NCBI GenBank assembly: GCA_964507055.1
Contig: CAZDOJ010000001.1
Location: forward strand, 13,210-77,209
Reading direction: 5' to 3'
Length of the DNA stretch: 64,000 nt
Source of the DNA: an uncultured Gammaproteobacteria bacterium
Lineage (GTDB): Bacteria; Patescibacteriota; Microgenomatia; Levybacterales; UBA12049
Shown here: positions 24,954 to 57,275 of the stretch, piece after piece
Layout: each line of letters opens with the position of its first letter
Position numbering within the stretch: position 1 is the first letter of the stretch
Made by a program: the position numbers and the translations under genes
Notes under the pieces: model-generated
What the model saw: the letters and a program-made list of their open reading frames with translations, nothing else
Databases searched by the model: none
Told to the model about the DNA's origin: nothing

Positions 24954-24982
24954 TTGACGCTTCACAAAACTTCTTCTATAAT
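24954..24982 (+). promoter_or_regulatory. Sigma-70-type promoter for the first island gene: -35 'TTGACG', a 17-nt spacer, then -10 'TATAAT'.
   Basis: TTGACG lies at 24954-24959 and TATAAT at 24977-24982. The ATG at 24992 lies 9 nt downstream, giving a near-leaderless transcript. Confidence 0.55.
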
Positions 24983-24991
24983 CGCAAGATT

Positions 24992-27016
24992 ATGGAAAAG
25001 GATAGATTGTTTTCAAACAGAGATAAGGCTTCTCGAGAAATGTACAAGCAAACACGTAAAGCGATAGGTGGACCTACGCGTATTGATAGTTTATTCGTTG
25101 CGACTACTTTGACTGGAGAGCCCGTCAATTATAGAGAAGATTTTACTCAACCATTGCTTGAAAGTGAGTATCGTAAGGCAGGATTAATCATGCATACGGT
25201 GGAGCATGCAAGAAGTAATCCTCTTACATTGGTCCCTGAGTTAGTGAAGACGAAAGCGTTTGCCATTGATGCAGTAATAATTAATGGTGAAATGCATAAA
25301 GATAATGGCACACATATGGTTGCTGTTGTTCCAACGGATACTGAAGAAGATGGTACAAAGCTTACTGAATATCATGTTATTGATTCTCTCACCGAGGGTG
25401 GTGTTACTTCATATAAGTCAGAAATAGAAGCCTATGAACATATCCAATCACTCTTTGTACCGGAATCTGTCCTCATATCTCTTCACCCGAGTGAAAAAGA
25501 AGTTGAACGAAGAACACATCATGGAGATGAAATTATTACGGAAATGCTTCAGGTTGGGGATAATGCCTTCATAGAGGTTCAGGTTGCAAATGATGATCCT
25601 AGATTTTTTGGAAAGAAAGAATCGGAAGTAACTACTGCTGAAACGCTCGAGCAAGACAAAAAAGCATTGCAAGAAGTGATGCATGCACTTATTGACGATT
25701 TCCATAGCGAAGATCCAAGTCGTAAGCAGTATCTGTATACAGAATTCGCAACCATAGCAGCTCGACACGATATGCGTTACCCTTTGCTCTCTGAAATAGC
25801 GATGGATCATCTCGAGCCAGGTGCTACTCCTAGTTCCGAAGATCTTCAAAATGTACATAAGACTATCGAAACACAGCCAACAGATAATAGTATCGTGGAT
25901 ACACAAATTCCAGCATCAGTACTTCGTTCTGCCAAGCGATTGGTCGCTCATTATGCACAAGAACAAGCAAGTGACCCCTCGTTACGCGTTGTAGATATTG
26001 ATGCTCAAGTATCCTTTATTGATGAACAGGTTGCTCTTTATAACAAATCGCTTTACGATTTAGGTGATCTTTCAGAATATAACCCACGAGAATTTACTGG
26101 AGATGAATTACTAAAAGGAACCAGAGCTGCGTATGAAGAGGCACGAAGAAAGGGCTTGGATGTAATGACACCTGATTCTGAGAATGTCCGAAGTGATGGT
26201 AAGGTCGCGGTAACCTATGGATTCACTACATTTGAAAAAACAGGGAAATGGCGTAAAAAGCAGCAAACCTCGTGGAGATCTGCAATGGTGTTGGTTCTGG
26301 ATACAGAACAAAGAAAGCCTATTATATATGGTGCTCAGGATGGATCTTCTCATGAAATTATGATTGATGGTGTAGGTACGTCTGTTGAAAATTTGACTGT
26401 TGATAGAGCGGTTGCAGTTCATACCAATAATTTAAATATAAAAGAGGTTGAGGTCGAGGGTGGTGCTTCTTTACATTTTGATAGTGGACATCTAGCATAT
26501 GCGACTGTTCGTCCAGAAGCGACAGTTACTTTTGAAAACTCAGTTGTGAATATGGTAAGTTCAGACAAGAATACTCGAACGTATGCACATTATAGTCAGA
26601 TCGGAAGAGTGCAGGTAATAAATGGACTTTTTGATGTAGGTGGTACAGATATTGGCCATTTATATGCGAGCGATGCTAGAGTAAGCGTGTATGGTGACAT
26701 AGTAAAGCTTACTGCTGATAATAAAAATACAGCATTTACACAACAACAAGGAGTGTGCGGAGAATATTATGGACTGAATCAAGCACACATAGTGCACTTT
26801 GCTTCATATCCAGAGAAAGTGACTGCATCTCCTAATACAAGATATTTCGTTGATGACGAAACTGTCCAAATAGATCGTGATGGAAATAGATGTGTATATT
26901 CTAAGGCTTATGATCAATTTCAATATGACAGGGAACACACCATTGATGCGATGCATACGCTAGTAGACTGGTCAGGGCAAAATGATGATGTTGAAGGTCC
27001 CCGAAGATCACTGTGA
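24992..27016 (+). CDS. Tag-bearing island protein 1. It is a hypothetical protein with a beta-helix-like repetitive C-terminal half.
   Basis: It ends 'VDWSGQNDDVEGPRRSL'. The start was moved to the ATG downstream of the promoter, because the ORF track's GTG start would include the promoter itself. Repetitive segments such as 'VEVEGGASLHFDSGHLAYATV' suggest a parallel beta-helix. Confidence 0.6.
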   Translation: MEKDRLFSNRDKASREMYKQTRKAIGGPTRIDSLFVATTLTGEPVNYREDFTQPLLESEYRKAGLIMHTVEHARSNPLTLVPELVKTKAFAIDAVIINGEMHKDNGTHMVAVVPTDTEEDGTKLTEYHVIDSLTEGGVTSYKSEIEAYEHIQSLFVPESVLISLHPSEKEVERRTHHGDEIITEMLQVGDNAFIEVQVANDDPRFFGKKESEVTTAETLEQDKKALQEVMHALIDDFHSEDPSRKQYLYTEFATIAARHDMRYPLLSEIAMDHLEPGATPSSEDLQNVHKTIETQPTDNSIVDTQIPASVLRSAKRLVAHYAQEQASDPSLRVVDIDAQVSFIDEQVALYNKSLYDLGDLSEYNPREFTGDELLKGTRAAYEEARRKGLDVMTPDSENVRSDGKVAVTYGFTTFEKTGKWRKKQQTSWRSAMVLVLDTEQRKPIIYGAQDGSSHEIMIDGVGTSVENLTVDRAVAVHTNNLNIKEVEVEGGASLHFDSGHLAYATVRPEATVTFENSVVNMVSSDKNTRTYAHYSQIGRVQVINGLFDVGGTDIGHLYASDARVSVYGDIVKLTADNKNTAFTQQQGVCGEYYGLNQAHIVHFASYPEKVTASPNTRYFVDDETVQIDRDGNRCVYSKAYDQFQYDREHTIDAMHTLVDWSGQNDDVEGPRRSL

Positions 27017-27052
27017 TCTTTTATTCTTGATAAGTGCTATAATACTACTTTT

Positions 27053-28978
27053 ATGACAGAGCAAAAACGAAATATTGGTCCAGCTGCCGCATTATTAAAG
27101 ACCAATCCTGAACTAATAGCACAATCACCAGAGATTGCAAGACAGCTTATAGCGGATAAAGGATTTGCAGGTGAGGCTATAGCACGTCTTGGAGGAAGGA
27201 GGATGCGTCTTCTTCTTGAAGGTAGTGCAGCCGTTCATAGAAGGGCAATGATGCCTATCTCAGGACTGAGTCGTGTCGATACAGTTGTTCCTCAATATAC
27301 CGGAACGCACGAGGAAAACACGCGTATTGATGAGGGTATAAAGACGGGACGGAAAGCCGTCATTAATGGCGGAAAAGATAGAGAGAAAGCTGAGGTTGGA
27401 GCGATTGATACGTTGCGTCTTCCTGAGTTTAAAGTCCCCGCACAAATAGCAGATACTCCCATTATTATTATTGGTGGCGGTGCAGCAGGTATTATCAGTG
27501 GGCGAAGTCTTCATGAAATGGGATTCACAAATGTGAAAATCTTTGAAAAAGGTAAACCAAACGGTATTTGGAATGCAGATAATGCTGACATTACTGATGG
27601 GTCACGAAATAATCCCTCAAAGATTGTATTTCATCATCGTCACCGAACGAGCTCCTCTATCCCTCCCGTTCCAGGTTCAGGGAGAGAAATTACGAGTTTT
27701 CTTGATGACATGACCAAGGGGCCTTTATTGTCCCAAGAATTGAATATACGCACTGCAGAAGTAACACATATCCAACCTGGAGATCTGCATCATATTGTTC
27801 ATTATCAAACGCCAGAAGGTGAAGCTCGTGCTGCAAGTGCTCCAATTGTGATTAATGCTACTGGAGTGGGAGAGCCTCTCCCTGCAAACCTACCCGGGAC
27901 AATGGAAACTTCAACAAAAGATGCTGGAGTTCGTTGGCAAGAAAAGATTACCCCTCAAATGGCTGAAGAGTATCGAAATAAGTCTATGGTATTAATTGGT
28001 TTGGGAAATAGCACTGCCGAAATGCTCATGCAAATTCAAGCTTATAACGCCCAAGGTTATAATATTGGCTACAAAATACTTACGCATTATCCGCAGGAAG
28101 CTGTGGTCGATCCTACTTCAACCTATAATTTGGAAGGTAGGCACTTTAAAGTTTTTCGTGACTCAAGAAATCTTGGTAGATACGACGGAGATTTGCAGGA
28201 GCCGAGAGACGCATACGTGCAAGCAGTTCAAGGAGGTAAGGTTATGGCTGATGTAACTCGATGGGATAGAATCGGTGATAACGTAATGGTCGAGATGCGG
28301 GACGGATCTTCACAAATAATTCCATGTGATCGCCTCTACACATTGATAGGTTATGGTCAGCCAGTCGAAGTTCTTGAAAAAATGGGTATGACTGTTACAG
28401 ATGCGGATAAAAGGACTGTCGCTGTGGATTATGATGGAGAAGTGCAAAGAGTGCCTGGAGTAGCAGGCCGTGATCGAGTATTTCCTGGTTATTTTGCAAG
28501 TGGATCCGTATTAAAATCATCAACAATGCCAAATGCATCGGTTATTCCTGGAATTTTTTTCCGTACGCCTGACTTACTCCTCGCTGTTACCACCAGAGCA
28601 ATGGAATATCAGATTGCTATTGAAAAATATAAAAAAACAGAGATAGCGGCGAAATTATATGGTCAACAGCCTAAGCCTGAAAATCGAGCAGGTGCACATC
28701 GAGCAACTGATTCAGAAACTATGTTGGACGGCGTTGTTGCTCAATGGATTACTAGTGAACAGTCTATTCAGGAATCTTTACACGATTCTGAGCCTGAACC
28801 AGTGGTCCCAGAAGAAGAGATTTCAGAGCAATCGAAAGAAGAGATCGTTTTTACGAGTGGCATACAAATTAGTGATGGGAAACTCGTATTTGGGCCTCTT
28901 CCAGGATTGGATGATAGAGTAAGTTGGGATATTGAAGCCGGTCCCGAAGATCAAGATCCGCCAAAAAAAACTCTCTAG
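27053..28978 (+). CDS. Tag-bearing island protein 2. It is an FAD/NAD(P)-binding oxidoreductase with two Rossmann folds (flavin monooxygenase or pyridine-nucleotide-disulfide-oxidoreductase-like).
   Basis: The first dinucleotide motif is 'IIIIGGGAAGIISGRS' and the second is 'MVLIGLGNSTAEM'. The divergent tag is '...SWDIEAGPEDQDPPKKTL'. A 'TGCTATAAT' box lies 9 nt before the ATG. Confidence 0.6.
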   Translation: MTEQKRNIGPAAALLKTNPELIAQSPEIARQLIADKGFAGEAIARLGGRRMRLLLEGSAAVHRRAMMPISGLSRVDTVVPQYTGTHEENTRIDEGIKTGRKAVINGGKDREKAEVGAIDTLRLPEFKVPAQIADTPIIIIGGGAAGIISGRSLHEMGFTNVKIFEKGKPNGIWNADNADITDGSRNNPSKIVFHHRHRTSSSIPPVPGSGREITSFLDDMTKGPLLSQELNIRTAEVTHIQPGDLHHIVHYQTPEGEARAASAPIVINATGVGEPLPANLPGTMETSTKDAGVRWQEKITPQMAEEYRNKSMVLIGLGNSTAEMLMQIQAYNAQGYNIGYKILTHYPQEAVVDPTSTYNLEGRHFKVFRDSRNLGRYDGDLQEPRDAYVQAVQGGKVMADVTRWDRIGDNVMVEMRDGSSQIIPCDRLYTLIGYGQPVEVLEKMGMTVTDADKRTVAVDYDGEVQRVPGVAGRDRVFPGYFASGSVLKSSTMPNASVIPGIFFRTPDLLLAVTTRAMEYQIAIEKYKKTEIAAKLYGQQPKPENRAGAHRATDSETMLDGVVAQWITSEQSIQESLHDSEPEPVVPEEEISEQSKEEIVFTSGIQISDGKLVFGPLPGLDDRVSWDIEAGPEDQDPPKKTL

Positions 28979-29135
28979 AATGTCAGGTAGTATCTCTCTT
29001 TTTCATGTTATAATTCCGCCATGCCAAATATCGTGGGAAGAGATTGGAGGGGCATATGAGATGAGGGACCGAGTGGTAATCATAGGACTTTGTAGAACTT
29101 GCAAAAACCATAAAAATATCCTATAATATTAAGCT

Positions 29136-32129
29136 ATGAATAGAAAAGAGGCGCGGGCTTATTTCCGAGATCTTGGAAAAGAGACTCGTATCGATGATGC
29201 AAATGCACGCAGTACCCGGCGTGAATATCTAGCTGGTGAACGTGAGAGTGAAGCTTTTCTAGAAGCACAATCTGTAGTTCGTAAACATGCTACTCGTATT
29301 GGATCAGCTAGAAAATACTTTAGAGATCTAGGTCGAGAATTGCGTGGAATCGATGGCACTTTTCGTAAAGAATATTTAGCTGAAGAAAAAACTACAGAAG
29401 CATATCGAGATGCTCGTAGTATACTTCGCACAGATGCTCAGGAAAAGCATGCTTCCAGATCTGAAGGTGAAGGTCGACCAATCCCTGAAAGAATAGTTAG
29501 AGCTGCAGAACAAACTCCACAAGCTACAGTTACCTCAGATGAAATTGCCGTTCCTATGGATCATAGAGAAGCAATTGATCAGAATCCATCAACAGAAACA
29601 GCCAATCAAGAAACTATTCGGTGGGCATACTCCGTTATTGACGGTTATCGGGCAGCAATTCCTGAAAAAGGTACGAGAAAAGTTAAAACTGAAGCTGCAA
29701 ATGCGTATGTTCGAGAGCAACTGGTTGAGGTTATCCACGATCCTAATAAATTAGAAACAGCATTTGGTATCTGGAAAGCAAACTCAGATGAATCATCATT
29801 CTATCGAAGTGCCAAAGAAAAACTTCCAAGTGTTGTTGGGCGACATTGGGATGAGATCTCACCAAAGATTCTTGGTGAAACCGTAACGAAATATGCCCGT
29901 AACGGATATGTTGCCCAAGAATTTGAAGAATACCTCAAAGGATATTTTGAAGGGCCAAAAACAACGGAAGACAGGGTTGAAGCGTATTATCGATACTGCG
30001 ATGCAGCTCTTGATCTAGCGAATGATCCAGAATCTGTGCGAAAAGCTGTTGAAATTGGAAATTTTGAAACAGATATCATGTCCAGAAGGGGAGAAATGTT
30101 TCAAGATGTCATGTTGATTAATTTTATGGGTGTATATGATCCTCCACTTCGTCAAAAAGCAAGTACAGCTGTAAAATTAGTTATGACGAGTCTAACTCGA
30201 CTTGTAGGATTTGATCGCGATGAAGTGATGCGAAAACATCTAACAGCAATTGAAGCTATGCAGGGTGATCCAAAGTTTAACCATAAAAGACGACATATAC
30301 AAAGACTTTCAGTAAAGGGAAATATGGTAGGTTTTAAAGAGCTTTATGGAGAAGAGATCCCGACGATGGGTAAAGTATTTGGTAATTCAACTGGTTTACC
30401 AACAGATATTTATAGACAAATTATGCATGGCAATACAGATCTTGAAGCAGTCGAAGACCTTGCAGGTGGGCAAGAAGAATGGCTACGAGATCCGCTGGGG
30501 AAAAAGGTTTATGATAAGGTCCTGGGAAGATCTTCTATGGCTGCACATAAGATATATATTGCTGGTGAAATAAACGCAAGTGGTGAAGATGTCGTCTTCT
30601 TAACAAGACAAGTGGACGGAGTCATGTTGGAAGTGGGAATTCCAGCGTCACTCGCAGGTAGTCGAGATGCTATTTTAGAAGCATGCTCAGCTAGTACAGA
30701 AAATATTGCGATGGTAAAAGATGAAGGACTTCCTTTTGTTCCTGTAGAAGGTTTTCATTATGATAATAAACTTATCTATGCTACATATCGAAAAATAGAT
30801 GAAGCAGAAAATACCAACAGACATCCATTGGAAATGCTCAATAATATTGGCTTTCCAGATGTCGCATCTGAAGATTTGGAAGCTGATAATGCTGCACTTG
30901 CGACGCAAATTGTAAATGAACAACGACGATTCTTGAATACAAGAGGATTTAGTATACCTCTTACCCATCCGGCTTTAGCAGATAGAGGATACCAGAATTT
31001 TACTTTCAAGAAAAATCCTGATGACAATCGTGTGACTGATCTTACGATTAAGGTAAGAAATACTGAGATTAAAGTTCGTCTTGATCAGGATTTCCGTTTT
31101 GATTTAGAAGGGATGGAATGCGATGTTCCACAAAGAGAATCGATCCATAATATTATCTTAACAGTCCTTTATCCTGCTCTTTGTGGATTAAGTGCCAAAG
31201 ATCATGATGGCAACGAAACTGATCTTTCGAGAATTTTCCAAACTCGAGTTGGGTATATTGGTTATCTTGGTTCAGGACGAAACTTCACTGATAAAAAGGC
31301 AGAAGAGTTTTTCTCTGTAGAAGGTCGAGACTTATCCACGGTATCAGAACAAAGAAAAAGTATTGATCCGACGGGACAATCGAGAAACTCTAGTTATTGG
31401 GCACCAGTTGAATCTGATGATCCAAATCTTCCACCGGTGCGTTTAAATATTGGCTTGCCTGCAGATAAATTTAAAACCATTGCTCCTGAGGCTGAACAGG
31501 CTGCTTTGGAAGCTGCTACGACAGCGGCATTAGCAAATATTGTTTTTGAGGGGGAAGTTAATGAAAGTACTCCGAGAAGAGAATATGTAAGTCCTTTTGG
31601 TGCAAATGTTATTCCTGATGTGGAAAGACGAGAAATAGAAACAACATTTAAAAGTAATGTGGAAGTTTCTATTAGGAGAGGTGCACGATTAGAAGCAAAC
31701 TTGCATCAGCTAGAATTACAGCAAGCAGAAGATGTAAGTATGATTGACAACTATCCAGAGTTCCATAAAAAGAGAGGTGAACTTGAGAAGGCAATAGAAA
31801 AAAGACATACAAAGATTTTAGAAATGACTACTTCATTAAAAGAGAATAGGGATCTACTAGAGGGTGTGGCAGAGTTATGGACAGACTATCCAGAATTAGC
31901 ATATCTAGAAGGACGCGAGGAAATAAGTGTCACTGAGAAAGCCTTGCTAGTTGCAGCTGCAGATGAATCCAGAACTGCAGCAAATTGGCAGCAAGAAACT
32001 ACTGTTTTTGATGGTACAACTGCTCCAACTTTAGAATCTGATACAACAGAAACTTTTGAAGAAACGAATGGACATATTGATTGGACAGGTGAAGGTGACG
32101 ATCATTCTGGTCCAAATCAAACTCTATAA
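29136..32129 (+). CDS. Tag-bearing island protein 3. It is a large (997 aa) hypothetical protein with an N-terminal tandem 45-aa repeat.
   Basis: It ends 'GHIDWTGEGDDHSGPNQTL'. The N-terminal duplicated unit reads 'ARAYFRDLGKETRIDD...REYLAGERESEAF' and then 'ARKYFRDLGRELRGIDGTFRKEYLAEEKTTEAY'. A TATAAT box lies 8 nt before the ATG. Confidence 0.6.
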   Translation: MNRKEARAYFRDLGKETRIDDANARSTRREYLAGERESEAFLEAQSVVRKHATRIGSARKYFRDLGRELRGIDGTFRKEYLAEEKTTEAYRDARSILRTDAQEKHASRSEGEGRPIPERIVRAAEQTPQATVTSDEIAVPMDHREAIDQNPSTETANQETIRWAYSVIDGYRAAIPEKGTRKVKTEAANAYVREQLVEVIHDPNKLETAFGIWKANSDESSFYRSAKEKLPSVVGRHWDEISPKILGETVTKYARNGYVAQEFEEYLKGYFEGPKTTEDRVEAYYRYCDAALDLANDPESVRKAVEIGNFETDIMSRRGEMFQDVMLINFMGVYDPPLRQKASTAVKLVMTSLTRLVGFDRDEVMRKHLTAIEAMQGDPKFNHKRRHIQRLSVKGNMVGFKELYGEEIPTMGKVFGNSTGLPTDIYRQIMHGNTDLEAVEDLAGGQEEWLRDPLGKKVYDKVLGRSSMAAHKIYIAGEINASGEDVVFLTRQVDGVMLEVGIPASLAGSRDAILEACSASTENIAMVKDEGLPFVPVEGFHYDNKLIYATYRKIDEAENTNRHPLEMLNNIGFPDVASEDLEADNAALATQIVNEQRRFLNTRGFSIPLTHPALADRGYQNFTFKKNPDDNRVTDLTIKVRNTEIKVRLDQDFRFDLEGMECDVPQRESIHNIILTVLYPALCGLSAKDHDGNETDLSRIFQTRVGYIGYLGSGRNFTDKKAEEFFSVEGRDLSTVSEQRKSIDPTGQSRNSSYWAPVESDDPNLPPVRLNIGLPADKFKTIAPEAEQAALEAATTAALANIVFEGEVNESTPRREYVSPFGANVIPDVERREIETTFKSNVEVSIRRGARLEANLHQLELQQAEDVSMIDNYPEFHKKRGELEKAIEKRHTKILEMTTSLKENRDLLEGVAELWTDYPELAYLEGREEISVTEKALLVAAADESRTAANWQQETTVFDGTTAPTLESDTTETFEETNGHIDWTGEGDDHSGPNQTL

Positions 32130-32170
32130 AACTTATAGCAAGGAAAGCATGAGTTTGATATACTTTCACT

Positions 32171-33298
32171 ATGTCAAATCCTGAAAATAGACGGTCAGTA
32201 GAAGTAACAGAACGAACAGCACTTCATTCAGCATTTGCCGCAGCTGCACGAATTCATACCATGGGAGAATCTACTATAGAGAACGCCGGCTTATATCCTT
32301 CTTCGCGGATAGGAAAAAATCGACTTCGCCTCAGACCTGCTCTCGAAATAAGTGCTTCTGAAAAACCAGGAGATCCTCTTTCTCAAACAATTCTCATAAC
32401 ACGTAACGCACGAAAAGGTGAACAAACCATAGGTATTTCTATGAGTCCAGATGGAATAAGAAAATCATTTTTCAAATTGTATGATGAACCCGATTTTGAT
32501 GCGTACAAAGCACGTGCAGACCTCGATAGAGAAGACGCACTTTTTCAAAGAAGTGCAGGTTTGGACCTAATGAGTGATGCAGAAGTCCTTGCAAACATTC
32601 GTGAATTGCGAGGCATTATGGGAAGGGAATGGCCTGCCGATGTGGAGCTTCCAGACAATGAAGGTTCAAAATCTCTTCCAACCCCGGAAACTATTTCGCT
32701 CTTTCAGACTGTCACTTCTGAATTAGCATCACAGCGTCAGACGACACAAACCACTTGGTATGACGGAGGCAAACAATATTTGCTTACAACAATCGAAGAG
32801 AAGGGGAAGGGACCTGTTGAAGTTGTGCTTACACAGCTTGAAAGAGATCTTGATTCGACTTCAGATGAAAAAGTTGTACATACCTGGGAATTTCTCGGAA
32901 AGAAGAATAGATTTTCCTCTATATCTGGGGAATGGGAAGACGATTTAGCTTCGACTAGTAGCATAGAAGGTGATGAATATCATATTCAAGAAGAGATGAG
33001 AGAAAAACAGGGACTTTTTCGTGGTGTTTTTGGAGTAGACAAATTTAAAGCAAGTGAAGCTGAGGTTCAACTTGGATTAACGATATTAGAGCGAAGAGCT
33101 CAAGAGGCTGATCAAGCATTGCAGCAAGCCTTTGATGCGATGAGTGAACCGATACCAGAAAGAGAAGAAGGAGATCCAAATCCAGGCGGAACTCCAACGA
33201 TCGTTTTTGAAGCATCAGATGAAACATTAGAGGGCAAAAATGGAGATATCGATTGGAATGGTGAAGATGACCCTGAGGGTCCGCAAAAGTCGTTGTAG
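32171..33298 (+). CDS. Tag-bearing island protein 4 (family B-related).
   Basis: It ends 'GDIDWNGEDDPEGPQKSL'. It shares the 'G.EWP...LPD' motif ('RGIMGREWPADVELPDNEG') with proteins 6 and 8. Confidence 0.6.
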   Translation: MSNPENRRSVEVTERTALHSAFAAAARIHTMGESTIENAGLYPSSRIGKNRLRLRPALEISASEKPGDPLSQTILITRNARKGEQTIGISMSPDGIRKSFFKLYDEPDFDAYKARADLDREDALFQRSAGLDLMSDAEVLANIRELRGIMGREWPADVELPDNEGSKSLPTPETISLFQTVTSELASQRQTTQTTWYDGGKQYLLTTIEEKGKGPVEVVLTQLERDLDSTSDEKVVHTWEFLGKKNRFSSISGEWEDDLASTSSIEGDEYHIQEEMREKQGLFRGVFGVDKFKASEAEVQLGLTILERRAQEADQALQQAFDAMSEPIPEREEGDPNPGGTPTIVFEASDETLEGKNGDIDWNGEDDPEGPQKSL

Positions 33299-33346
33299 AT
33301 GATTTAGCCCATTGCGATAATCCAATCATGTCTTTATAATGCCCCT

Positions 33347-33679
33347 ATGGTTGAGTCAAGAAGAAGGAGTGAACCGCCTCAAAGAAGAGGTCCATGGCAA
33401 GAGCGTGCTGGCAATATATTGCGATCGGCACGAAATAAATTTTCTGGGGATGTTGGACGCCTAGAGCAGTGCCTCGTTCCTATAAATGATCCCATAACGC
33501 CTGAACCAAAGAATGTCTCCGGTCCAAGTGGATGTCTCATCGATAATTCAGGTAAAACTTCCGAAAGAACTCCACCTCCAGATCTGGGGATATCGATTTG
33601 GGAACAACCACTATCACAGGTTTTTAATATCTTTGATGGTAGCAATGATGGCCAGAGCGGTCCCAGAAGATCTTTATAA
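33347..33679 (+). CDS. Tag-bearing island protein 5 (a small 110-aa protein with a degenerate tag).
   Basis: It ends 'NIFDGSNDGQSGPRRSL' (Trp is missing). It starts 'MVES' from the conserved 'TATAAT-N7-ATGGTTGAG' arrangement. Confidence 0.5.
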   Translation: MVESRRRSEPPQRRGPWQERAGNILRSARNKFSGDVGRLEQCLVPINDPITPEPKNVSGPSGCLIDNSGKTSERTPPPDLGISIWEQPLSQVFNIFDGSNDGQSGPRRSL

Positions 33680-48695: not shown

Positions 48696-48707
48696 AAATG
48701 TCAGGTT
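48691..48707 (+). repeat. Conserved intergenic element 'TTTAGAAATGTCAGGTT' that overlaps the stop codon.
   Basis: It recurs nearly identically at 50764-50780, and a related 'CTAGAATGTCAGGTAG' lies at about 28974-28989. It always sits directly after a tag-encoding 3' end and about 30 nt before the next -10 box. Confidence 0.5.
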
Positions 48708-48722
48708 TGTTGAGCTAAATTT

Positions 48723-48731
48723 TGCTATAAT
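48723..48731 (+). promoter_or_regulatory. Extended -10 'TGCTATAAT', 6 nt upstream of the ATG at 48738 (leaderless arrangement).
   Basis: It is representative of the island's promoters. The same arrangement occurs at 42102-42110, 44542-44550, 50796-50804 and 53562-53570 (TGnTATAAT-N6-ATG). Coordinates are approximate to +/-1 nt. Confidence 0.5.
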
Positions 48732-48737
48732 CCCCGA

Positions 48738-50768: not shown

Positions 50769-50810
50769 AAATGTCAGGTTCACTACAATGAAGTTTGTTA
50801 TAATCCCCAA

Positions 50811-53528
50811 ATGAAAGAACGATTTCGAGAAAGACGTATACAAAGGGAGGTTTTACGACATCATCCTGATCCGGGCGAACAGGATAAATTTTCGCAAGGT
50901 GGAGCACATCCTGAAGTTCCTGGTGAACGGAGAGAAAGAGTATCGACACAGAAGATTGATGAACTCCTGGCAGGAGTGTTTAATAATGAATCCAAGATGA
51001 TTGTCCTTGGTGGGATGATCCTCAATCCTCACTGGTATTCAGATCAGCAGCTTCATGATATGACAATGCGGATGCAACGAGGAGAGCGAGGATGGGGCAT
51101 TGGAAATCACATTCCCTTTGGTTACTGTCAGGATTCTTTTGATGATATCGGACTTGTTGCAAAAAATGAAATCGATGGGGCTCGCGATAGTTTAAAATAT
51201 CATGTGACCCAAGATGGTATTAGTGCACTTCCTGCTATTGGTCATCTACTTTCGTTTGTTGAAGAATCAGGCATCTCTTTGCATAGAACTTTCTCAACAA
51301 CGAGTACTCCTTCTTCAGCAGCGAGTATTGATTCTGAGGAAGAACATAATGATGATCGTGACATACGAAAACGTGCACCAAAGACAAGGTATAGAATTTT
51401 TAAACAATTACTTGCTCATGAAGGACCAATACAAAAAGTTGATTTACAAGAAAATCTCAACGTGAATGGGAGTTCTCTCGGGCACCATTTAAGAAACCTC
51501 AGTATTGAAGGTATGCTTGACTATCAAAGCTATTATGATGGTGAACCACTCGCTGTTACATATCGCATCAATGCAGATGCTTTTCAAAAGATAAACTATG
51601 ATGATCTTCCACGAGATGCAAGATCAACGATTACAACGATTACGAGACGAGTTGCTTTTATTGCTGCTCATATGGAAGGGACTGTTACTCCTGCTAAAGT
51701 GCATGAAAAATTGCTTGCTCTGTATCCTCAATATGCAGAGAGAACTGAGGGTCATGTTCGAAGCAGCGTGAATCGTGCCTTAACGCATCTTGCAAAACAT
51801 GAGTATCTACAGCGAGGAGAGATCTCTGCAGATCGTCCTTCATTAATCTCTTTAACTGATGAGCAGCGAGAAAGAATGCAACAACTTGTAACGATCATCG
51901 ATACATTCCAATCAGGTGATCCCGAATTCTTAGCACAAGGTGAGCAAAAAGCCCGCGAAATTTTAAATGATCCTCAAAGAGTAGCACGATTAATGAGACA
52001 CGCACAAGAAAATTCTAGAATAGCATTAGCTTTGGGGCCTGCGGAGTTAAAACAGATGATCATCGAAATCATTAAAGATAGTGACACACCATTATCCGGA
52101 GCGAGAATTGTGCCGTTGATGGACCATCGGATTGGACAGCCGTATGCAACAGCTTTATTAAAGCAATTATATGATGGTGGTGAAATAGCCTTGGTAAGTG
52201 AAGGAAGATCAAAATGGTATGGAAAACTTCAAGAAACAGGAGGTGTTGACGCATTACCCGAAGATAGAGATGGGTTAAGATCATCACTGCAACAAGTTAC
52301 TGCTGAATTTCAGCCATACGAAAATGGCCTGGGGCTTTTATTTGCTGCTTTAGACACGCATGATCCAGCGTCAGCAGATGCCCGAGAGGTTTTAAATCAG
52401 ATTGAATATGTCCGCATGGATCCTGAATATCGAAGACTTAAAGGTAGAATCGACACTATACAAGATAGGCTGGAGAGTTTCGCTGATGAAATTGAAGATG
52501 AAGCAGTTGCGGACGAAACTCAGGTTAGAAAAAGAACACCACGCCAAAGTTCGGTCGTCATTCGCCAACGGATAGATGCTTTTAGGGATTTAGGGATTAC
52601 CAATCAAAGCGAAATTGCACGTTGGATGGGCTTCTCTCCTGATAGTTTGAAATATCATTTCCAGTCGATGGACGATACGCTTAATAGAGCAATATCTCCT
52701 GAGCGAATGGCAAAAATTGATATATCCAGAGCATTGCGTGATCAGGATCAATTAACTCCCGCACAAATTGCAGAACGGATGGGTACCACTGAGAGTACAG
52801 CTCGTGCATATCTCGAACTTGCAGATGATGCTGAAAGGCTTGCAAATCAACGCGAAGTAACTTCTCCTTATCAAGATCGCCTTGTTAGAGTCCGCGAAAT
52901 GGAAGAAGAGTGGGGTGACATGATGCAAGTTACACCGATGGTTCATCAAATGGCTGCGGAGTTAGGCCTATCTGTTGCATCGATCCATAATTATCGAAGA
53001 GAACTTTTTGCGACACGTGCTCGAGCAGCAAGAGTACGGGAAGGCCAAATAGAACAGGTCCGAGCGATGACTGAAGAGTTACAGCAGCTTCCTAACCAAG
53101 AACGTGTATTAGTGATTGCTGAAAGACTAGGATTAAATCGATCAACTGTATATCGCTTTCAAGATAAAGCATTTGGAGTTGCAGAGCAAAGAAAAGTAGG
53201 AATTGCTGAGCGACGTGCACGGGTTGCCCAGCGTTCAGAAGAGCTTCGTGCAATGGGAATCCCTATAAAAGAAGCTGCAAAAGTTATTGCTGAAGAAGAA
53301 GGTGTCTCTCCTGGGACGATAATGTTGGACAGAAGAGCTTTATTACAATCACAGCGAGAAGCCACACAAGCAGAAAATCTATCATCTTCTGTAGAAGAAA
53401 CCATTGTTTATGAGGCAGATCATAGCTTGCCTGATCTTTCGTCAGAGCAATCATTAAATACCTTCAATGAAACAATTGACTGGTCTGGTGAAGATGATCC
53501 GGATATTGGACAACACAGGACACTTTAG
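50811..53528 (+). CDS. Tag-bearing island protein 18 (family C). It is a 905-aa protein with five tandem HTH-like repeats.
   Basis: It ends 'ETIDWSGEDDPDIGQHRTL'. The repeated HTHs are 'SEIARWMGFSPDSLKYHFQSM', 'QIAERMGTTESTARAYLELA', 'QMAAELGLSVASIHNYRREL', 'VIAERLGLNRSTVYRFQDKA' and 'KVIAEEEGVSPGTIMLDRRAL'. Confidence 0.65.
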   Translation: MKERFRERRIQREVLRHHPDPGEQDKFSQGGAHPEVPGERRERVSTQKIDELLAGVFNNESKMIVLGGMILNPHWYSDQQLHDMTMRMQRGERGWGIGNHIPFGYCQDSFDDIGLVAKNEIDGARDSLKYHVTQDGISALPAIGHLLSFVEESGISLHRTFSTTSTPSSAASIDSEEEHNDDRDIRKRAPKTRYRIFKQLLAHEGPIQKVDLQENLNVNGSSLGHHLRNLSIEGMLDYQSYYDGEPLAVTYRINADAFQKINYDDLPRDARSTITTITRRVAFIAAHMEGTVTPAKVHEKLLALYPQYAERTEGHVRSSVNRALTHLAKHEYLQRGEISADRPSLISLTDEQRERMQQLVTIIDTFQSGDPEFLAQGEQKAREILNDPQRVARLMRHAQENSRIALALGPAELKQMIIEIIKDSDTPLSGARIVPLMDHRIGQPYATALLKQLYDGGEIALVSEGRSKWYGKLQETGGVDALPEDRDGLRSSLQQVTAEFQPYENGLGLLFAALDTHDPASADAREVLNQIEYVRMDPEYRRLKGRIDTIQDRLESFADEIEDEAVADETQVRKRTPRQSSVVIRQRIDAFRDLGITNQSEIARWMGFSPDSLKYHFQSMDDTLNRAISPERMAKIDISRALRDQDQLTPAQIAERMGTTESTARAYLELADDAERLANQREVTSPYQDRLVRVREMEEEWGDMMQVTPMVHQMAAELGLSVASIHNYRRELFATRARAARVREGQIEQVRAMTEELQQLPNQERVLVIAERLGLNRSTVYRFQDKAFGVAEQRKVGIAERRARVAQRSEELRAMGIPIKEAAKVIAEEEGVSPGTIMLDRRALLQSQREATQAENLSSSVEETIVYEADHSLPDLSSEQSLNTFNETIDWSGEDDPDIGQHRTL

Positions 53529-53576
53529 TAGCAGCCTGTAGTAGAATTTTGAGCCTAAATTTGGTATAATCCGCAA

Positions 53577-56027
53577 ATGGTAGAACAAAGAGGACCAACT
53601 TCAGAAAAAGTTGTGACTGCAAACGGCCGTCAAGAACGTCGTAAGGGCCCGAAAAAGCGTGTAACGATGATCCACCTCATCCATACTGATGCTGCTGCTG
53701 AGGAGCATCTCACCCCATTTGAACAAGGTATTCGTGATGCCGTCCAAAGAAATCCTGAGCTTACTAAAAAAATTGGTGTATTCATGGAAGATACATCTAT
53801 GACAGCTGCTCAAACAGCTTTTATAAATGCTAAGATTTCAGCAGGCTCCCTTCCTTCAGAAGCAATGCTTGACTGGCATGTTAAGGAGTATCAGGAGCGT
53901 GAAAATGGGGCAGAACCATATGCGGAGGATGTTAAGAGACTTGGAGAAGTTCTTTCAACAGGATTTTATGGTAGAGCCAGAGAAATCGCAGATAGAACTT
54001 TTGCTGAATACCCAGGAAAACTTTTTCTTATTTCAGAAGGTCATGCTGAGCACACGCATGTTCATATTGATAAAGGACCACAACCGCAAACGAAACGAAG
54101 GGGGTTTTTCCCGAAACGCAAGGCTGAGGGACCCGCTCCTAAGAGCGAAGAAGAAATGTTGGAGGCAATGAAAGAGAGGATTGTGTCTTTATCATCCAGC
54201 CTTCGAGCTCGTGATACTAAGATAGTCCAAAATATCGACGAGGCACTGGCAAGAGATGACGTTGCTGAAGTGGTTGGATGGGTTGGGGCAGTACATACTC
54301 CCGTAGGGCATGAGTTAAGTAGGAAATATACAGTGAAGCGTATCTTTCCCGATAAGCAAGATGGTGTTTTTTTCTATTCTCCGGGACAACAGCTTACAAG
54401 GAAGGCAACAATGGATCCGGAATATATTCCTACTCATGCAGAAATTACTCAAACCCGTTTGTCTCACCAAGCCGCTCTTTCTGAGCTGAAAGCTGAAGGA
54501 GCAATCCCAGCAACCTATGACCGGCAGGGGCATGATGGTGCTATATCTCAACAAATAATTAGACGTGAATACGATTGGATGAAGAGGCAAAATACCCCTG
54601 AAGCTACTCCCAGGTTGGCAACTGTTGATATAGTGGCTCAAACTCTACGAGATCGGGAACAAGATTATGCGAGGATTAAGGCAGAAGAAGCCCGAGCTGC
54701 ACATCCGGACTATCCGTTTACACTGCGTATACAACCCGATCAACCAGAATGGGCGATTTTGAAAGCTGCAGGGATGTCTGCTGAAAAGATTAATTCAGGT
54801 ACATTTACTCGACAGGAATTACTCGATGCCGGCTTCTTATTCAAAAACACACTGAATTCAGGAGAAAAAGGAATTATAAGTGGAAAGATACCAGATCCAG
54901 AAGATCCAGAAAAAGAAATTGATTTTACAGGACGGAAGTTGTTAACGAGAGCGGAGGTAGAAATGGTATATGCGTATCAGCAACAACATCCTGAAGTTTA
55001 TGGACTACAAGGTCATGATATCGATGAAGTACGAAATGATATGTTGAGTTTCATGCGTGAAGCTGTGCGTACCGATCCCTTTGAATATAATAATGATTTT
55101 CTTCGTAAAGCACTTCCTTATGATCGAGCTCAAATGGGTTGGGAAATGGACTGGGAACAAGATGAGGCAGATCTGATAGAAAAATTCTGGAGAGCTGAAG
55201 AAAAGAAATATGTGCGAAGTGATCAAGATCCAGAAAAAACGAGAGATTCGAAATGGAGAGCCGCTTGGATACGTGTGAGAGAGAATTTTGCTCGAACACA
55301 ACTTGCTGATCTCTATACTTTGAAAGATGAAGGTACTAAAACTGCTTATTTTAACCGTAAAGAGGTGCGTGGTATCACAACAGAAACGAAAAATATGGTA
55401 CGTGGAGGAAGTGTTTTAAACGAGCCTTCGCCTTTTCTTGATAGTGGATTTTTCTTTGGTCGTAATATTGATATAGATCTTTGGATGAAAGAACAGACTG
55501 GTGATACTGAGGGCGTACACAGAAGGCTCAACGTAGTAAATGTCCATCTTATCGGTGCTCATCCAGAATTCCCGGGTTTTAGTGAAATGGGCACTCAAGG
55601 TTGGGATCAGCGATATATGACTCCAGGAGAATATGTACGAGAGCTCTATCCAGAAGATGAGGCAGTTCGTACCGCAGTACAGACTCAAGAAGCCACACTG
55701 GCTGCACAAGTCTTACATATAGATAAAATCATTAAAGAATCACATGTGCGATTACTAGCAGCTGTTAAAAAATGGGATGCGGAACGAGGAATATTAGGTC
55801 TAAAAGAAATTTTCAAGCGACCTGCATCAGAGTATGCTCCTCAGGCTAAAAATATTGTTGAAGGTGAAGACTATGGAGAAGCGTTACGGGTAGATTCCAC
55901 GGAAACAACAGTTGCGTCAGGAATGCCACAATTGAGCTCTGATAACACACCGCTTGCTGAGATTGATTTACAGATTGATTGGGGAGGAGAAGGAGATCCA
56001 GATCTTGGTGCACATAAGTCTCTATAA
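53577..56027 (+). CDS. Tag-bearing island protein 19 (family A with a roughly 450-aa C-terminal extension).
   Basis: It ends 'LQIDWGGEGDPDLGAHKSL'. It has 'KKIGVFMEDT', 'SLPSEAMLDW' and 'VVGWVGAVHTPVGHELSRKY'. A 'TGGTATAAT' box lies 6 nt before 'ATGGTAGAA'. Confidence 0.65.
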   Translation: MVEQRGPTSEKVVTANGRQERRKGPKKRVTMIHLIHTDAAAEEHLTPFEQGIRDAVQRNPELTKKIGVFMEDTSMTAAQTAFINAKISAGSLPSEAMLDWHVKEYQERENGAEPYAEDVKRLGEVLSTGFYGRAREIADRTFAEYPGKLFLISEGHAEHTHVHIDKGPQPQTKRRGFFPKRKAEGPAPKSEEEMLEAMKERIVSLSSSLRARDTKIVQNIDEALARDDVAEVVGWVGAVHTPVGHELSRKYTVKRIFPDKQDGVFFYSPGQQLTRKATMDPEYIPTHAEITQTRLSHQAALSELKAEGAIPATYDRQGHDGAISQQIIRREYDWMKRQNTPEATPRLATVDIVAQTLRDREQDYARIKAEEARAAHPDYPFTLRIQPDQPEWAILKAAGMSAEKINSGTFTRQELLDAGFLFKNTLNSGEKGIISGKIPDPEDPEKEIDFTGRKLLTRAEVEMVYAYQQQHPEVYGLQGHDIDEVRNDMLSFMREAVRTDPFEYNNDFLRKALPYDRAQMGWEMDWEQDEADLIEKFWRAEEKKYVRSDQDPEKTRDSKWRAAWIRVRENFARTQLADLYTLKDEGTKTAYFNRKEVRGITTETKNMVRGGSVLNEPSPFLDSGFFFGRNIDIDLWMKEQTGDTEGVHRRLNVVNVHLIGAHPEFPGFSEMGTQGWDQRYMTPGEYVRELYPEDEAVRTAVQTQEATLAAQVLHIDKIIKESHVRLLAAVKKWDAERGILGLKEIFKRPASEYAPQAKNIVEGEDYGEALRVDSTETTVASGMPQLSSDNTPLAEIDLQIDWGGEGDPDLGAHKSL

Positions 56028-56078
56028 CTTGAATATAAGGCTAAATTCAACTATAATACCCCGATACATTAGATAACT

Positions 56079-57275
56079 ATGACTGAGACACGAAAACCAA
56101 GAGAACCCTTCAAATTGAGTAAGCCAGTGAACCCAGCATACAGAGCAGCTTCAAAAAGATGGTCAGACCATCCAACGGCTGTAGACTTCACCAATTATGC
56201 TGACTACCACTGGGTTGAGAAATTTAATGAACATTCCAGAGCTGGAAATAAAATTGCAGCATTAGGATGGTTGCTGGCAGGACAAACCCGAAAGTCATTT
56301 ATGACCCGATATGATATCGTAGGTCGAAATGAAGTTGCTCCTCGGATGAGTGATGCTCAAAAGCAGACAATCAGTCGTTTTGAAACAGTCCAAAAAGTAA
56401 CAAATATCATAAAACGTGCACTTGAAGATAGTGAGACAAAAAAGCGTAGACCAAAGGAGCCACTTAGACATAGAATTGCTCGGTATAAGGATGTTTTTGA
56501 TTCAGCGAGAGCAAAAAGAAGAGAGAGAATCGATAATGGAGGAGGACTTTTTAATACGGCATTTTCTACATTTGTTCCAGATAAAGGAATTGAAAATGCA
56601 TATAAGAGTAAAGTAGCACGGCAATATGGACCATCTGATGAGGAGTCTGCTCAACAAGGGGTGGCTGAAAAAGAACCTAAAAACACTTTTGATATAGGTC
56701 ACGGATTGACCGTAGACTTTGATCAAGCTCGAGATGCTGGACTTGATGCCGTAGAAGGTAGATTGGGGCCGATAACTGGAAATGAGACTAACCAGGAACT
56801 AAATGCTCGAAAAGCAATCGCTGCAGAAGCAAGAAAAAAGGATATTCAAGGCCAATTAGATAAACAGCGTGCAGATTTTGATGCTGGACGTGAAAGTCAG
56901 GGGCTTGATCCAGTAGATCATGCAGGAGAACCAGATGCTGATGCTGCAATAGCAAAATACCTCGAAGCAAAAAAGACAACGTCGGAGACTCCGCAAGCTT
57001 CTGTACCGGATATGAAGGGTGTAAAAATAACAATGCCAGGATTTCTCAAAAGAGATCCTGATCGAAATAAAACCTTTGAGGAACGTACACTTGCAGAAGT
57101 TGCTAAACGTGTTGCAGAAGCCGAAGCTGCGAAACAGGCTTCAGTTTCCCAAAATCGAAATGGTATGCCTGAGTTATCAGATGATCAAAATGTGCCGCTA
57201 TCGACTCTGGATGAAAGTGTACAATGGGATGGCTCTGACAGTCCACGTGGGGTCGATGGGCCAAAGATGCGATAA
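56079..57275 (+). CDS. Island protein 20 with a degenerate tag. It is a basic, Lys/Arg-rich hypothetical protein.
   Basis: It ends 'ESVQWDGSDSPRGVDGPKMR'. It is the last plus-strand gene of the array and is convergent with the minus-strand operon, with a 4-nt gap. Confidence 0.55.
   Translation: MTETRKPREPFKLSKPVNPAYRAASKRWSDHPTAVDFTNYADYHWVEKFNEHSRAGNKIAALGWLLAGQTRKSFMTRYDIVGRNEVAPRMSDAQKQTISRFETVQKVTNIIKRALEDSETKKRRPKEPLRHRIARYKDVFDSARAKRRERIDNGGGLFNTAFSTFVPDKGIENAYKSKVARQYGPSDEESAQQGVAEKEPKNTFDIGHGLTVDFDQARDAGLDAVEGRLGPITGNETNQELNARKAIAAEARKKDIQGQLDKQRADFDAGRESQGLDPVDHAGEPDADAAIAKYLEAKKTTSETPQASVPDMKGVKITMPGFLKRDPDRNKTFEERTLAEVAKRVAEAEAAKQASVSQNRNGMPELSDDQNVPLSTLDESVQWDGSDSPRGVDGPKMR

Follow-up and report, generated by a model that had tools for sequence, protein, structure and literature searches.

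The gene array in the 64,000-nt window (the whole stretch of DNA analysed), which is part of a Saccharibacteria (TM7, Patescibacteria) genome of about 40% GC, is best explained as a set of separate leaderless transcription units driven by sigma-70 promoters, a reading from sequence to which we assign a probability of about 0.75. It is preferred because the promoter boxes are non-random, resemble sigma-70 elements, are spaced so as to put the transcription start at the A of the ATG or up to 3 nt before it and are not accompanied by Shine-Dalgarno (SD) sequences. The array, hereafter the island, runs for 38 kb from about 24.95 kb past the right end of the window and is composed of fast-evolving orphan genes, co-directional and separated by gaps of 27-75 nt. 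It includes tandem paralog families A (six or seven members), B (two) and C (three), with only 27-40% protein identity between paralogs, and it is adjoined by a gene on the minus strand encoding a VirD4-type coupling protein (58799-62551(-); PF02534 at 5e-29, also PF12696 and PF10412).

In 16 of the 20 plus-strand island genes the ATG is preceded by a TATAAT-like hexamer whose end lies 6-10 nt away (mode 6; Table 1). The twelve boxes listed in the first-pass annotation (24977, 27035, 29122, 36330, 41039, 42102, 43307, 44542, 46424, 48723, 50796 and 53562) were all recovered as TGnTATAAT, TATAAT or TGTTACAAT with an ATG 6-10 nt downstream, and four more precede the starts at 32171, 33347, 33755 and 35116. 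Allowing one mismatch at most in the hexamer and spacers of 5-10 nt, 2000 dinucleotide shuffles gave 1.77 +/- 1.25 boxed genes (maximum 8), which bears out the enrichment over shuffled sequence; exact TATAAT occurs at 11 of the 20 genes, compared with 0.24 in shuffles. Such a box precedes just 29 of 729 internal ATGs. Across the window, 13 of 32 plus-strand TATAAT sites have, 6-10 nt further on, an ATG opening a reading frame of at least 100 aa, and on the minus strand this holds for none of 28; control hexamers of the same composition showed no 6-10 nt peak before ORF-opening ATGs in the window, where the spacer profile of the box is a single peak at 6-10 nt and every box-linked start is ATG. 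The reported lack of SD sequences also held, since AGGA, GGAG or GAGG was present within -20 to -3 at 0 of 20 island starts, versus 3 of 24 core genes by the automated count. Furthermore, structure is weaker over the first 40 nt of the predicted mRNAs than in internal windows (-3.36 vs -4.63 kcal/mol, p ~0.02). No terminator-like site was seen on the plus strand between box-bearing island genes, the sole intergenic one on that strand in the island being at 39949-39965, upstream of the exceptional gene 39976.

Table 1. Promoters and start sites of the island, the adjoining genes and three core genes.
Feature	Coordinates (strand)	Promoter and start	Remarks
Island gene	24954..24994 (+)	TTGACG-17-TATAAT, no TGn, 9-nt spacer, ATG 24992	L089 ortholog keeps TATAAT (+7) and MEKDRLFSNRD start
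Island gene	27035..27055 (+)	TGcTATAAT, 9-nt spacer, ATG 27053	
Collapsed cassette	28979..29095 (+)	AATGTCAGGT-N20-TATAAT-N6-ATG	24-codon frame MPNIVGRDWRGI*DEGPSGNHRTL*; start and C-terminal tail only, TGA in frame
Island gene	29099..29138 (+)	TTGCAA-17-TATAAT, no TGn, 8-nt spacer, ATG 29136	L089/L091 orthologs: TATAAT (+9), flanks diverged
Island gene	32156..32173 (+)	TGaTATACT, 6-nt spacer, ATG 32171	
Island gene	33312..33349 (+)	TTGCGA-17-TATAAT, no TGn, 6-nt spacer, ATGGTTGAG 33347	
Island gene	33739..33757 (+)	TGaTATACT, 7-nt spacer, ATG 33755	
Island gene	35079..35118 (+)	TTGAAG-17-TGtTATACT, 8-nt spacer, ATG 35116	Not GTG 35098; independent gene call gives same start
Island gene	36303..36350 (+)	CCCGTAGTAG-N20-TACAAT (TGt), 9-nt spacer, ATG 36348	Heads three-gene coupled unit
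Island gene	37659..37669 (+)	Stop TAA, 5 nt, ATG 37667	No box, no SD; start coupled to preceding stop
Island gene	38843..38849 (+)	Stop TAA, 1 nt, ATGGTAGAA 38847	Coupled start
Island gene	39936..39978 (+)	TGgTATAAT, 34-nt spacer, ATG 39976	Exception: hairpin 39949-39965 and T-run
Island gene	41039..41057 (+)	TGtTACAAT, 7-nt spacer, ATG 41055	
Island gene	42102..42119 (+)	TGgTATAAT-CCCCAC-ATGGTAGAA	
Island gene	43284..43322 (+)	TTGTAA-17-TATAAT, no TGn, 7-nt spacer, ATG 43320	
Island gene	44515..44559 (+)	CCTGTAATAG-N20-TATAAT (TGt)-CCTTCG-ATGGTAGAACAA	Product sigma-70-like
Island gene	46424..46445 (+)	TGgTATAAT, 10-nt spacer, ATG 46443	Predicted leader 2-3 nt
Island gene	48697..48740 (+)	AATGTCAGGT-N19-TATAAT (TGc)-CCCCGA-ATGAAAGAA	
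Island gene	50770..50813 (+)	AATGTCAGGT-N19-TATAAT (TGt)-CCCCAA-ATGAAAGAA	
Island gene	53535..53579 (+)	CCTGTAGTAG-N20-TATAAT (TGg)-CCGCAA-ATGGTAGAACAA	Same cassette at L089 18216-18269
Island gene	56029..56081 (+)	TTGAAT-17-TATAAT, 21 nt before ATG 56079	Exception: short SD-less leader
Coupling protein gene	62552..62608 (-)	TTTTCA-17-TGtTATAAT, 28 nt before ATG 62551	Exception: leadered, no SD
Gene at 62698	62655..62700 (+)	CCTGTAGTAG-N20-TAAAAT (TGa), 7-nt spacer, ATG 62698	Family A; runs off window; has C-terminal tail (P0049)
dcd (PF22769)	4937..4955 (+)	TGtTACACT, 7-nt spacer, ATG 4953	
rseP (PF02163)	16922..16940 (+)	TGcTATAAT, 7-nt spacer	
proS	22816..22833 (+)	TGcTATACT, 6-nt spacer	Same box in L005

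The boxes follow the logic of sigma-70 promoters, in which the -35 element is dispensable with TGn and needed without it. TGn stands one base upstream of the hexamer in 12 of 16 island promoters (13 of 17 when that of gene 62698 is included), and TTGnnn lies at exactly 17 bp in all four promoters without TGn versus 2 of 13 with it (hypergeometric p ~0.006); full -35/-10 matches showed no overall enrichment. Among the promoters of relatives, 88 of 177 carry TGn. Transcription typically starts 7 bp after the -10 element (PMC12641261). Six promoters have spacers of 8-10 nt, from which leaders of 1-4 nt may result. Because RNA polymerase favours a purine at initiation, starts about 7 bp after the -10 element and finds the hexamer 6-10 nt from the ATG, the 5' end of each mRNA would be the A of the AUG or lie 1-3 nt before it, in keeping with the start point that had been predicted from box spacing.

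Under this leaderless reading, each of the 16 boxed plus-strand genes, as well as the gene at 62698, would be its own transcription unit with a housekeeping-sigma promoter, and translation would do without SD pairing, the 5'-terminal AUG presumably being recognised directly. In unboxed genes whose start comes 1-5 nt behind a stop, translation would rely on termination-reinitiation. Boxes are absent at all genes starting at most 5 nt after a stop or overlapping it (3600, 6278, 9312, 9671, 18916, 37667 and 58797), and the starts at 37667, 38847, 58797, 6278, 9312, 9671 and 18916, which lie 1-5 nt after or overlap a stop and have no SD, resemble known termination-reinitiation coupling. Since there are almost no terminators, read-through polycistronic RNA likely coexists with the individual transcripts. 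Roughly half of the core genes here that head an operon, and about one gene in four in related Saccharimonadia, would follow the same logic.

The extension of leaderless expression to the whole genome, as first proposed, proved overstated, given that core genes and 80 related loci mix leaderless, SD-led and coupled starts. The boxes of dcd, rseP and proS were confirmed at 7, 7 and 6 nt. Upstream of proS there is, however, also a T-box-controlled promoter, from which a transcript with a long leader may arise for at least this one "leaderless" gene. By the automated rule 5 of 24 core genes are boxed and 3 of 24 have an SD; on manual inspection, a box precedes about 10 of 17 operon-first core genes, and the remaining core genes are tightly coupled internal genes or SD-led (rpsB; a Hint-domain gene with AGGAG). 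In the window, the box is found at 19 of 34 first genes versus 1 of 10 internal ones. Among the 80 Saccharimonadia loci, which surround one gene (proS), include repeated orthologs and are not independent, 27% of operon-first genes (219/820) have a box and 30% an SD 4-mer, while the box occurs at 23 of 334 internal genes. Spacers of 5-9 nt are the most frequent for these SD 4-mers. In the same 80 loci, TATAAT is followed at 6-10 nt by an ORF-opening ATG in 95 of 745 cases, control hexamers being flat, and box-anchored starts (ATG 121, GTG 0, TTG 4) differ from SD-anchored ones (ATG 318, GTG 25, TTG 14; Fisher p = 0.01).

Island promoters are a distinct subclass, TTTGnTATAAT with a C-rich discriminator: C occupies 36 of 64 discriminator positions in the island versus 4 of 44 in core genes (p = 3e-7) and 3-17% in relatives (177 promoters). 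Subsets of them also carry an island-specific upstream 10-mer at fixed spacing, either CCYGTARTAG-N20 or AATGTCAGGT-N19. All four exact CCYGTARTAG sites in the window, where about 0.5 exact matches are expected, lie 20 nt upstream of an island -10, as does the single site in L089. The earlier statement that the island conforms to the rest of the genome is therefore half right, the island being an outlier in promoter type and in box density (14/20 vs 5/24 core genes by the automated rule). Evidence for the subclass outside the source genome comes from one 21-kb locus and one 3-kb contig, and the fact that another species conserves it in its orthologous island speaks for shared control of the array and not for leftover duplication; the promoters are apparently co-regulated. 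The hexamer is retained, with diverged flanks, in orthologous islands of two other metagenome assemblies, and orthologs of genes 24992 and 29136 in L089/L091 (41-53% protein identity) retain TATAAT at +7 to +9 between differing flanks. The suggestion that the island is long-resident is probably correct on the grounds of synteny, with a same-locus orthologous island in L089 and, in part, in L005; conforming promoters are no evidence of residence, as the same architecture would come with any donor belonging to this phylum.

Several other explanations were weighed against leaderless units. Chance matches in AT-rich intergenic DNA are refuted by the 16 boxes observed against 1.8 +/- 1.3 in shuffles; a GC content near 40% and TAA stops that add TA-rich strings, as at 38847, would favour them, but not the single spacer peak or the flat profile of the control hexamers. 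One or a few long polycistronic operons, with weak or silent boxes and translation by, for example, 70S scanning or S1 binding to AT-rich upstream sequence, would agree with the co-directional genes, their short gaps, the lack of terminator-like sites between boxed genes and the tight coupling that is clear at 37667, 38847 and 58797. This is nevertheless improbable, as it does not account for a near-consensus extended -10 at a fixed 6-10 nt before 16 of the 20 starts, for the way TGn and -35 compensate for each other, for a hexamer conserved in orthologs or for boxes being missing precisely where start and stop are coupled. The position of the motif where a ribosome-binding site would be, together with the missing SD, could also indicate a non-SD ribosome-binding or enhancer signal on leadered mRNAs, in the style of GeneMarkS-2 "group B" (Bacteroidota). 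The group-B motif, however, also precedes internal operon genes (PMC6028130), where the present box is rare (see the counts above); ribosome binding makes no use of a TGn placed exactly as in an extended -10 or of a TTG at -35, and the relatives plainly use SD sequences, all of which makes such a signal very unlikely.

The annotation had further proposed that promoter, start and first codons were duplicated as a unit, citing five genes with MVE starts. All five read as described, but TATAAT-N6-ATGGTAGAA is found at 42117, 44557 and 53577 only; 33347 has TATAAT-N6-ATGGTTGAG, and the supposed box of 38847 is a TATAAT overlapping the stop codon of the preceding gene (TTA-TAA-t-ATG), which with zero spacing cannot place a start site at its ATG. 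A cassette of about 65 bp is indeed shared across genes, namely the non-homologous 44557 and 53577 and one gene in another species (L089 18216-18269), although not as a relic of recent duplication. That the promoter/ATGGTAGAA cassette is a passive tandem-duplication remnant devoid of regulatory meaning would fit the tandem arrangement of families A, B and C and the junctions before 48738 and 50811, alike from stop codon to codon 5. We consider it unlikely, as neutral intergenic DNA should be randomised between paralogs this divergent, so that the similarity must be kept by selection or gene conversion, and as the sharing crosses homology; the MxE start is a protein-family trait, common also in distant family A homologs.

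Bacterial leaderless genes are recognised by a Pribnow box placed 6-8 nt from the start codon, and in GeneMarkS-2 "group C" genomes leaderless starts coexist with SD-led and internal genes (PMC6028130). The island resembles that group (Actinobacteria, Deinococcus-Thermus; M. tuberculosis, D. deserti) in its operon-first boxes without SD, but differs in an AT-rich genome, heavy use of the extended -10, starts that are almost only ATG and a 20-gene array with roughly one promoter per gene. Gram-positive extended -10 promoters share TGnTATAAT, the T-rich upstream sequence (TTTGn) and a dispensable -35, whereas Terrabacteria discriminators are AG- or AT-rich (PMC12641261) and that of the island is C-rich. 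The one Saccharibacteria start-site set cited, that of N. lyticus with 188 sites from RNA-seq, has been described as imprecise (PMC12641261). A literature search found no published statement of leaderless expression in Saccharibacteria or Patescibacteria; what is new is the lineage, the mechanism being already known.

Nearly all island products end in the tail IDWxGxxDxDxGPxR[ST]L-COOH, while those of L089 all carry a different one (SIAxQE..K[ST]K vs IDWxG..GPxR[ST]L), and the island looks like a candidate array of type IV secretion substrates. Type IV effectors with a shared C-terminal signal for the coupling protein are known as Xanthomonas XVIPCD and Legionella Dot/Icm repertoires. As in these, many unrelated proteins share one C-terminal tail and are encoded beside a VirD4-type ATPase; unlike them, the island tail is short (~20 aa), the set differs by species and the organism is a monoderm epibiont. 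[quoted passage not shown] The ~23 orphan proteins beside the coupling protein which it marks are probably co-regulated.

More tentatively, the island may be a regulon of such substrates built from modular cassettes, each with a leaderless promoter, an ATG, variable cargo and a species-specific C-terminal secretion tail, a possibility we hold to be less than even. The C-rich discriminator would then predict short-lived open complexes responsive to the initiating ATP, the operator-like 10-mers at their fixed distance could be recognised by sigma-like or HTH proteins encoded in the island, and the whole repertoire could be switched on at once, e.g. upon host contact. Conserved promoters and tail-coding ends would serve as recombination handles by which cargo genes are expanded, shuffled and deleted, the same process would have left the empty cassette at 28979-29095, and the tail would co-evolve with the coupling protein.

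The TGnTATAAT-N6-ATG unit appears to be used by a large share of Saccharibacteria genes and nearly all island genes. Saccharibacteria have become genetically tractable only recently. Until now their expression cassettes were taken over blindly from tuf and rpsJ (PMC10633639), and this minimal unit, with no ribosome-binding site, is a candidate for a compact promoter design. The array also cautions that co-directional genes need not equal an operon. Box geometry moreover helps to correct start-codon calls at 24992, 35116, 38847, 46443 and L089 2153. Upstream of ATG 56079, a weak TACATT at +8 is an alternative box, and upstream of ATG 39976, a TTG at position 39961 matches, in alignment, the MSHF start of the paralog at 41055.

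A TATAAT-like -10 hexamer with at most one mismatch, ending 5-10 nt 5' of the ATG, precedes 16 of the 20 plus-strand genes of the island, the orphan-gene array beginning at ~24.95 kb, against 1.77 +/- 1.25 genes when the upstream regions of these genes are dinucleotide-shuffled. The exact TATAAT is found at 11/20 genes versus 0.24 in the shuffles; among internal ATGs, the share with a box of this kind is only 4%. The enrichment proposed in the first-pass annotation is thus borne out, the sequence it described is present at every one of its coordinates, and four more island genes share the arrangement. It had also noted the lack of Shine-Dalgarno (SD) sequences, and no SD-like 4-mer occurs at any island start. 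One box has to be withdrawn: at 38847 the supposedly spaced TATAAT is in fact the last sense codon and stop of the upstream gene (TTA-TAA-t), and since it abuts the ATG with zero spacer it cannot position a start site there. The spacer between box and ATG has a single peak (6 nt, n=7; 7 nt, n=3; 8 nt, n=2; 9 nt, n=3; 10 nt, n=1). Anchoring the count on the motif instead of on gene calls gave the same answer, as 13 of the 32 plus-strand TATAAT in the window are followed after 6-10 nt by the opening ATG of a long ORF; control hexamers of the same composition gave nothing at that distance in the window.

The island boxes behave as promoters rather than as a ribosome signal or a product of chance. 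TG occupies the extended -10 position in 12/16 of them, and the genes whose boxes are devoid of TGn (24992, 29136, 33347 and 43320, named by ATG position) carry, without exception, a TTGnnn at a distance of exactly 17 bp on the 5' side, versus only 2/13 among TGn promoters; sigma-70 promoters would be expected to compensate in just this way. If the box were instead a ribosome-binding signal, it would occur on internal genes too (PMC6028130), from which it is largely missing. It is absent from genes that overlap the preceding stop codon or begin 1-5 nt beyond it (3600, 6278, 9312, 9671, 18916, 37667 and 58797), and in 80 related loci the box stands before 27% of operon-first genes versus 7% of internal ones. 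Box-anchored starts are ATG in 121/125 cases and never GTG, while 11% of SD-anchored starts are non-ATG (p = 0.01). Moreover, orthologs retain the hexamer while the neighbouring sequence changes: the spacer is 9 nt in g24992 and 7 nt in its ortholog in the related locus L089 (41% identity, both starting MEKDRLFSNRD), and 8 nt in g29136 versus 9 nt in its orthologs in L089 and L091.

Transcription typically starts 7 bp past the -10 element, at a purine (PMC12641261), so that a 6-nt spacer puts +1 at the A of the ATG and spacers of 9-10 nt predict leaders of 2-3 nt. A promoter of its own would give each gene a translatable 5'-terminal AUG; over their first 40 nt, the predicted mRNAs have slightly less structure than internal windows do. 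No plus-strand terminator-like sites were found between the box-bearing island genes, and read-through RNA therefore probably exists too; neither intrinsic terminators nor classical -35/-10 promoters were enriched over shuffles in the island. Judging from sequence, a leaderless, one-promoter-per-gene architecture is the best explanation of the boxes, with a probability of roughly 0.75. Leaderless expression is itself a known mechanism (GeneMarkS-2 group C). The mechanism is apparently undescribed for Saccharibacteria, and no direct statement on how Saccharibacteria, Patescibacteria or CPR use leaderless or SD starts turned up in literature searches.

The extension of this mode to the whole genome, as originally stated, was too strong. 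Part of the core (the first 24.9 kb of the window) has the box; the island represents the extreme. By an automated rule, a box precedes 5/24 core genes and an SD 3/24, compared with 14/20 and 0/20 in the island, and counting by hand gave a box at ~10/17 operon-first core genes. Both rpsB and the Hint-domain gene are leadered; the latter is the window's most clear-cut case of an SD-led gene, and the organism is therefore also able to use the canonical mode. Across 1.4 Mb of related loci, an ORF-opening ATG lies 6-10 nt after 95/745 TATAAT, and SD 4-mers are sharply peaked at spacers of 5-9 nt. Among 79 proS starts in relatives, 26 are of the leaderless type and 33 of the SD type; in Saccharimonadia (loci L005-L084), for example, TGgTATAAT-N8-ATG is seen in some and TACAAT...GGAG-N6-ATG in others. 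This alternation shows that the initiation mode has switched frequently in evolution. The Saccharibacterial lineage is a mixture of start types.

A T-box leader lies ahead of proS, holding a conserved GGUGGUACCACG box and a terminator hairpin with AGGAGG in its 3' arm, and is preceded by a canonical promoter (TTGACT-17-TACAAT). Between the leader and proS lies a 123-aa ORF, 61% conserved in L005; in the related loci L043 and L046, a T-box motif lies directly ~100 nt from proS. The gene may have a T-box-controlled leadered transcript in addition to its own leaderless promoter. Scans of the window with Rfam at the gathering threshold and for tRNAs gave no matches.

The island promoters are a distinct, conserved subclass. 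Over the first four positions 3' of the hexamer, C makes up 36/64 in the island (TATAAT-CCCC) versus 4/44 in core promoters of the window (p = 3e-7); in 177 leaderless promoters of relatives, C accounts for 3-17% at those positions, which are A-rich instead, and Terrabacteria discriminators are reported to be A-rich (PMC12641261). CC-type discriminators are also present in L089 and L091. Furthermore, the window contains four exact matches to CCYGTARTAG (36303, 44515, 53535 and 62655) versus ~0.5 expected by calculation, each of them separated from an island -10 downstream by exactly 20 nt. L089 has one copy, likewise at 20 nt, with TGcTATAATccgtcaATGGTAGAGCAA after it; this is the cassette of promoter, start and first codons also seen at 53577 and 44557. 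Another element, AATGTCAGGT, is found at 28979, 48697 and 50770, and at 12081 of L005, right after a stop codon and 19-20 nt 5' of TATAAT. With their fixed distances, both elements look like operator or activator sites, and it may be speculated that a sigma-70-like protein and two multi-HTH proteins of the island could read them. A metagenome scan for CCYGTARTAG-N17-TGnTAYAAT stayed at background level (92 matches, 6 with ATG and ORF, 0 island-like).

Pfam domains were detected in only 5/22 island products, namely a flavin oxidoreductase, the sigma-70-like protein, two HTH proteins and the coupling protein. Nearly all products (genes 24992-58797 and 62698-64000), whatever their fold, end in a ~20-aa tail, [IV]DWxGxxDxDxGPx[RK][ST]L-COOH; in the orthologous island of L089, every product ends in SIAxQE...K[ST]K-COOH instead. 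The tail types differ even between the clear orthologs g29136 and h7423 (53% identity), and the tail thus changes collectively from one species to another, which, together with the adjoining VirD4-type coupling protein, makes it a candidate secretion signal. The sigma-70-like protein, which has regions 2 and 4 as well as additional HTH domains, and the two large multi-HTH proteins carry the same tail. These DNA-binding proteins may be among the putative secreted set, or possibly regulators of the island promoters. The promoter subclass marks a candidate secretion-substrate array.

Coordinates of features in the window
Feature	Position	Strand	Details
Core genes	1-24.9 kb		dcd, thyA, glyA, rpsB-tsf-frr, rseP, pentose-phosphate enzymes, proS
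Hint-domain protein gene	12556-13407	-	TTGACA-17-TAATCT, ~21-nt leader, AGGAG 8 nt before ATG
T-box leader	22168-22437		Rfam RF00230, 36 bits, E = 1e-6, full model length, below gathering score 93
ORF between T-box leader and proS	22438-22809		123 aa
Conserved left flank of island (window, L005, L089)	24091-24912	-	Proline/serine/threonine-rich protein, C-terminal hydrophobic anchor
Orphan genes of island	24992-57275	+	20 genes; further two minus-strand, one at 62698
Empty cassette	28979-29095		Promoter, ATG and 24 codons
Family A genes	38847-44513, 53577-54536, 62698-		Homologs P0002-P0150
Sigma-70-like protein gene	44557-46401
Two multi-HTH protein genes	48738-53528
VirD4/TraG-type coupling protein gene	58799-62551	-	PF02534, 5e-29

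When species-representative genomes were searched with ProS, nearly all matches were Saccharibacteria/Saccharimonadia assemblies, and the nearest was OZ246394.1 (L005; 94% ProS identity), whose 1.61 Mb chromosome is large for Saccharibacteria. Many assemblies that are clearly Saccharibacterial by ProS identity and synteny are titled otherwise, for example Gammaproteobacteria, Bdellovibrionales, Nevskiaceae or Chloroflexi. Nucleotide similarity between the window and L005 ends at 24941; L005 has a 34%-identical g29136 homolog at the same position, and in L089 the orthologous island adjoins the same flanking gene, so the locus is ancestral and fast-evolving. The view that the island is long-resident stands on these same-locus homologs, and not on the conformity of its promoters with those of the core, an argument that fails. 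In word-indexed protein searches, g42117 retrieved only itself, a 22-sequence profile two proteins and g29136 three, which limits comparative footprints to L089 and L091. Identical copies of the window occur on Logan metagenome contigs, one >1 Mb; contigs that encode the same proteins match the window at 100% identity, leaving no polymorphism to use.

The cassette does recur, as had been proposed; its duplication as a unit holds only in part. Identities are 27-32% in family A (38847, 39976, 41055, 42117, 43320, 53577 and the 62698 gene), 40% in family B (48738 and 50811) and 23-27% in family C. By these sequences the paralog families are old, and neutral intergenic DNA would not survive such divergence. 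The cassette is nevertheless common to the non-homologous genes 44557 and 53577 and to another species, which argues that selection or gene conversion keeps the copies alike. An MxE start, with glutamate at residue 3, was considered as a leaderless translation signal and rejected: in relatives, E at positions 2-3 is seen in 12% of starts anchored on a box and 11% of those anchored on an SD, and distant family A homologs also often begin in this way, the commonest N-termini among 150 representatives being MER, MTE, MSE, MKE and MVE. The MxE start belongs to the proteins themselves and is not general to leaderless genes.

Family A has 211 representatives at E <= 1e-3 among 1.84 billion protein clusters, of which only a few carry either tail type. 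Its invariant His/Glu positions are H25, E57, H230 and H235 (g42117 numbering), and its AlphaFold model (pLDDT 71) lacks any significant neighbour in the PDB and bears only a weak resemblance to ChaN. An empty cassette, comprising start and C-terminal tail only in the frame MPNIVGRDWRGI*DEGPSGNHRTL*, broken by TGA, looks like a gene body lost via recombination between conserved ends. The standard arrangement is missing at g39976 (39900-39978), where two TATAAT boxes and a terminator-like hairpin (39949-39965) with a T7 run stand immediately 5' of the ATG. Upstream, ATGGTATAA at 39931-39939 resembles a mutated ATGGTAGAA, and the ATG of paralog 41055 (MSHF...) lines up with a TTG at 39961; g39976 may be decaying or attenuated.
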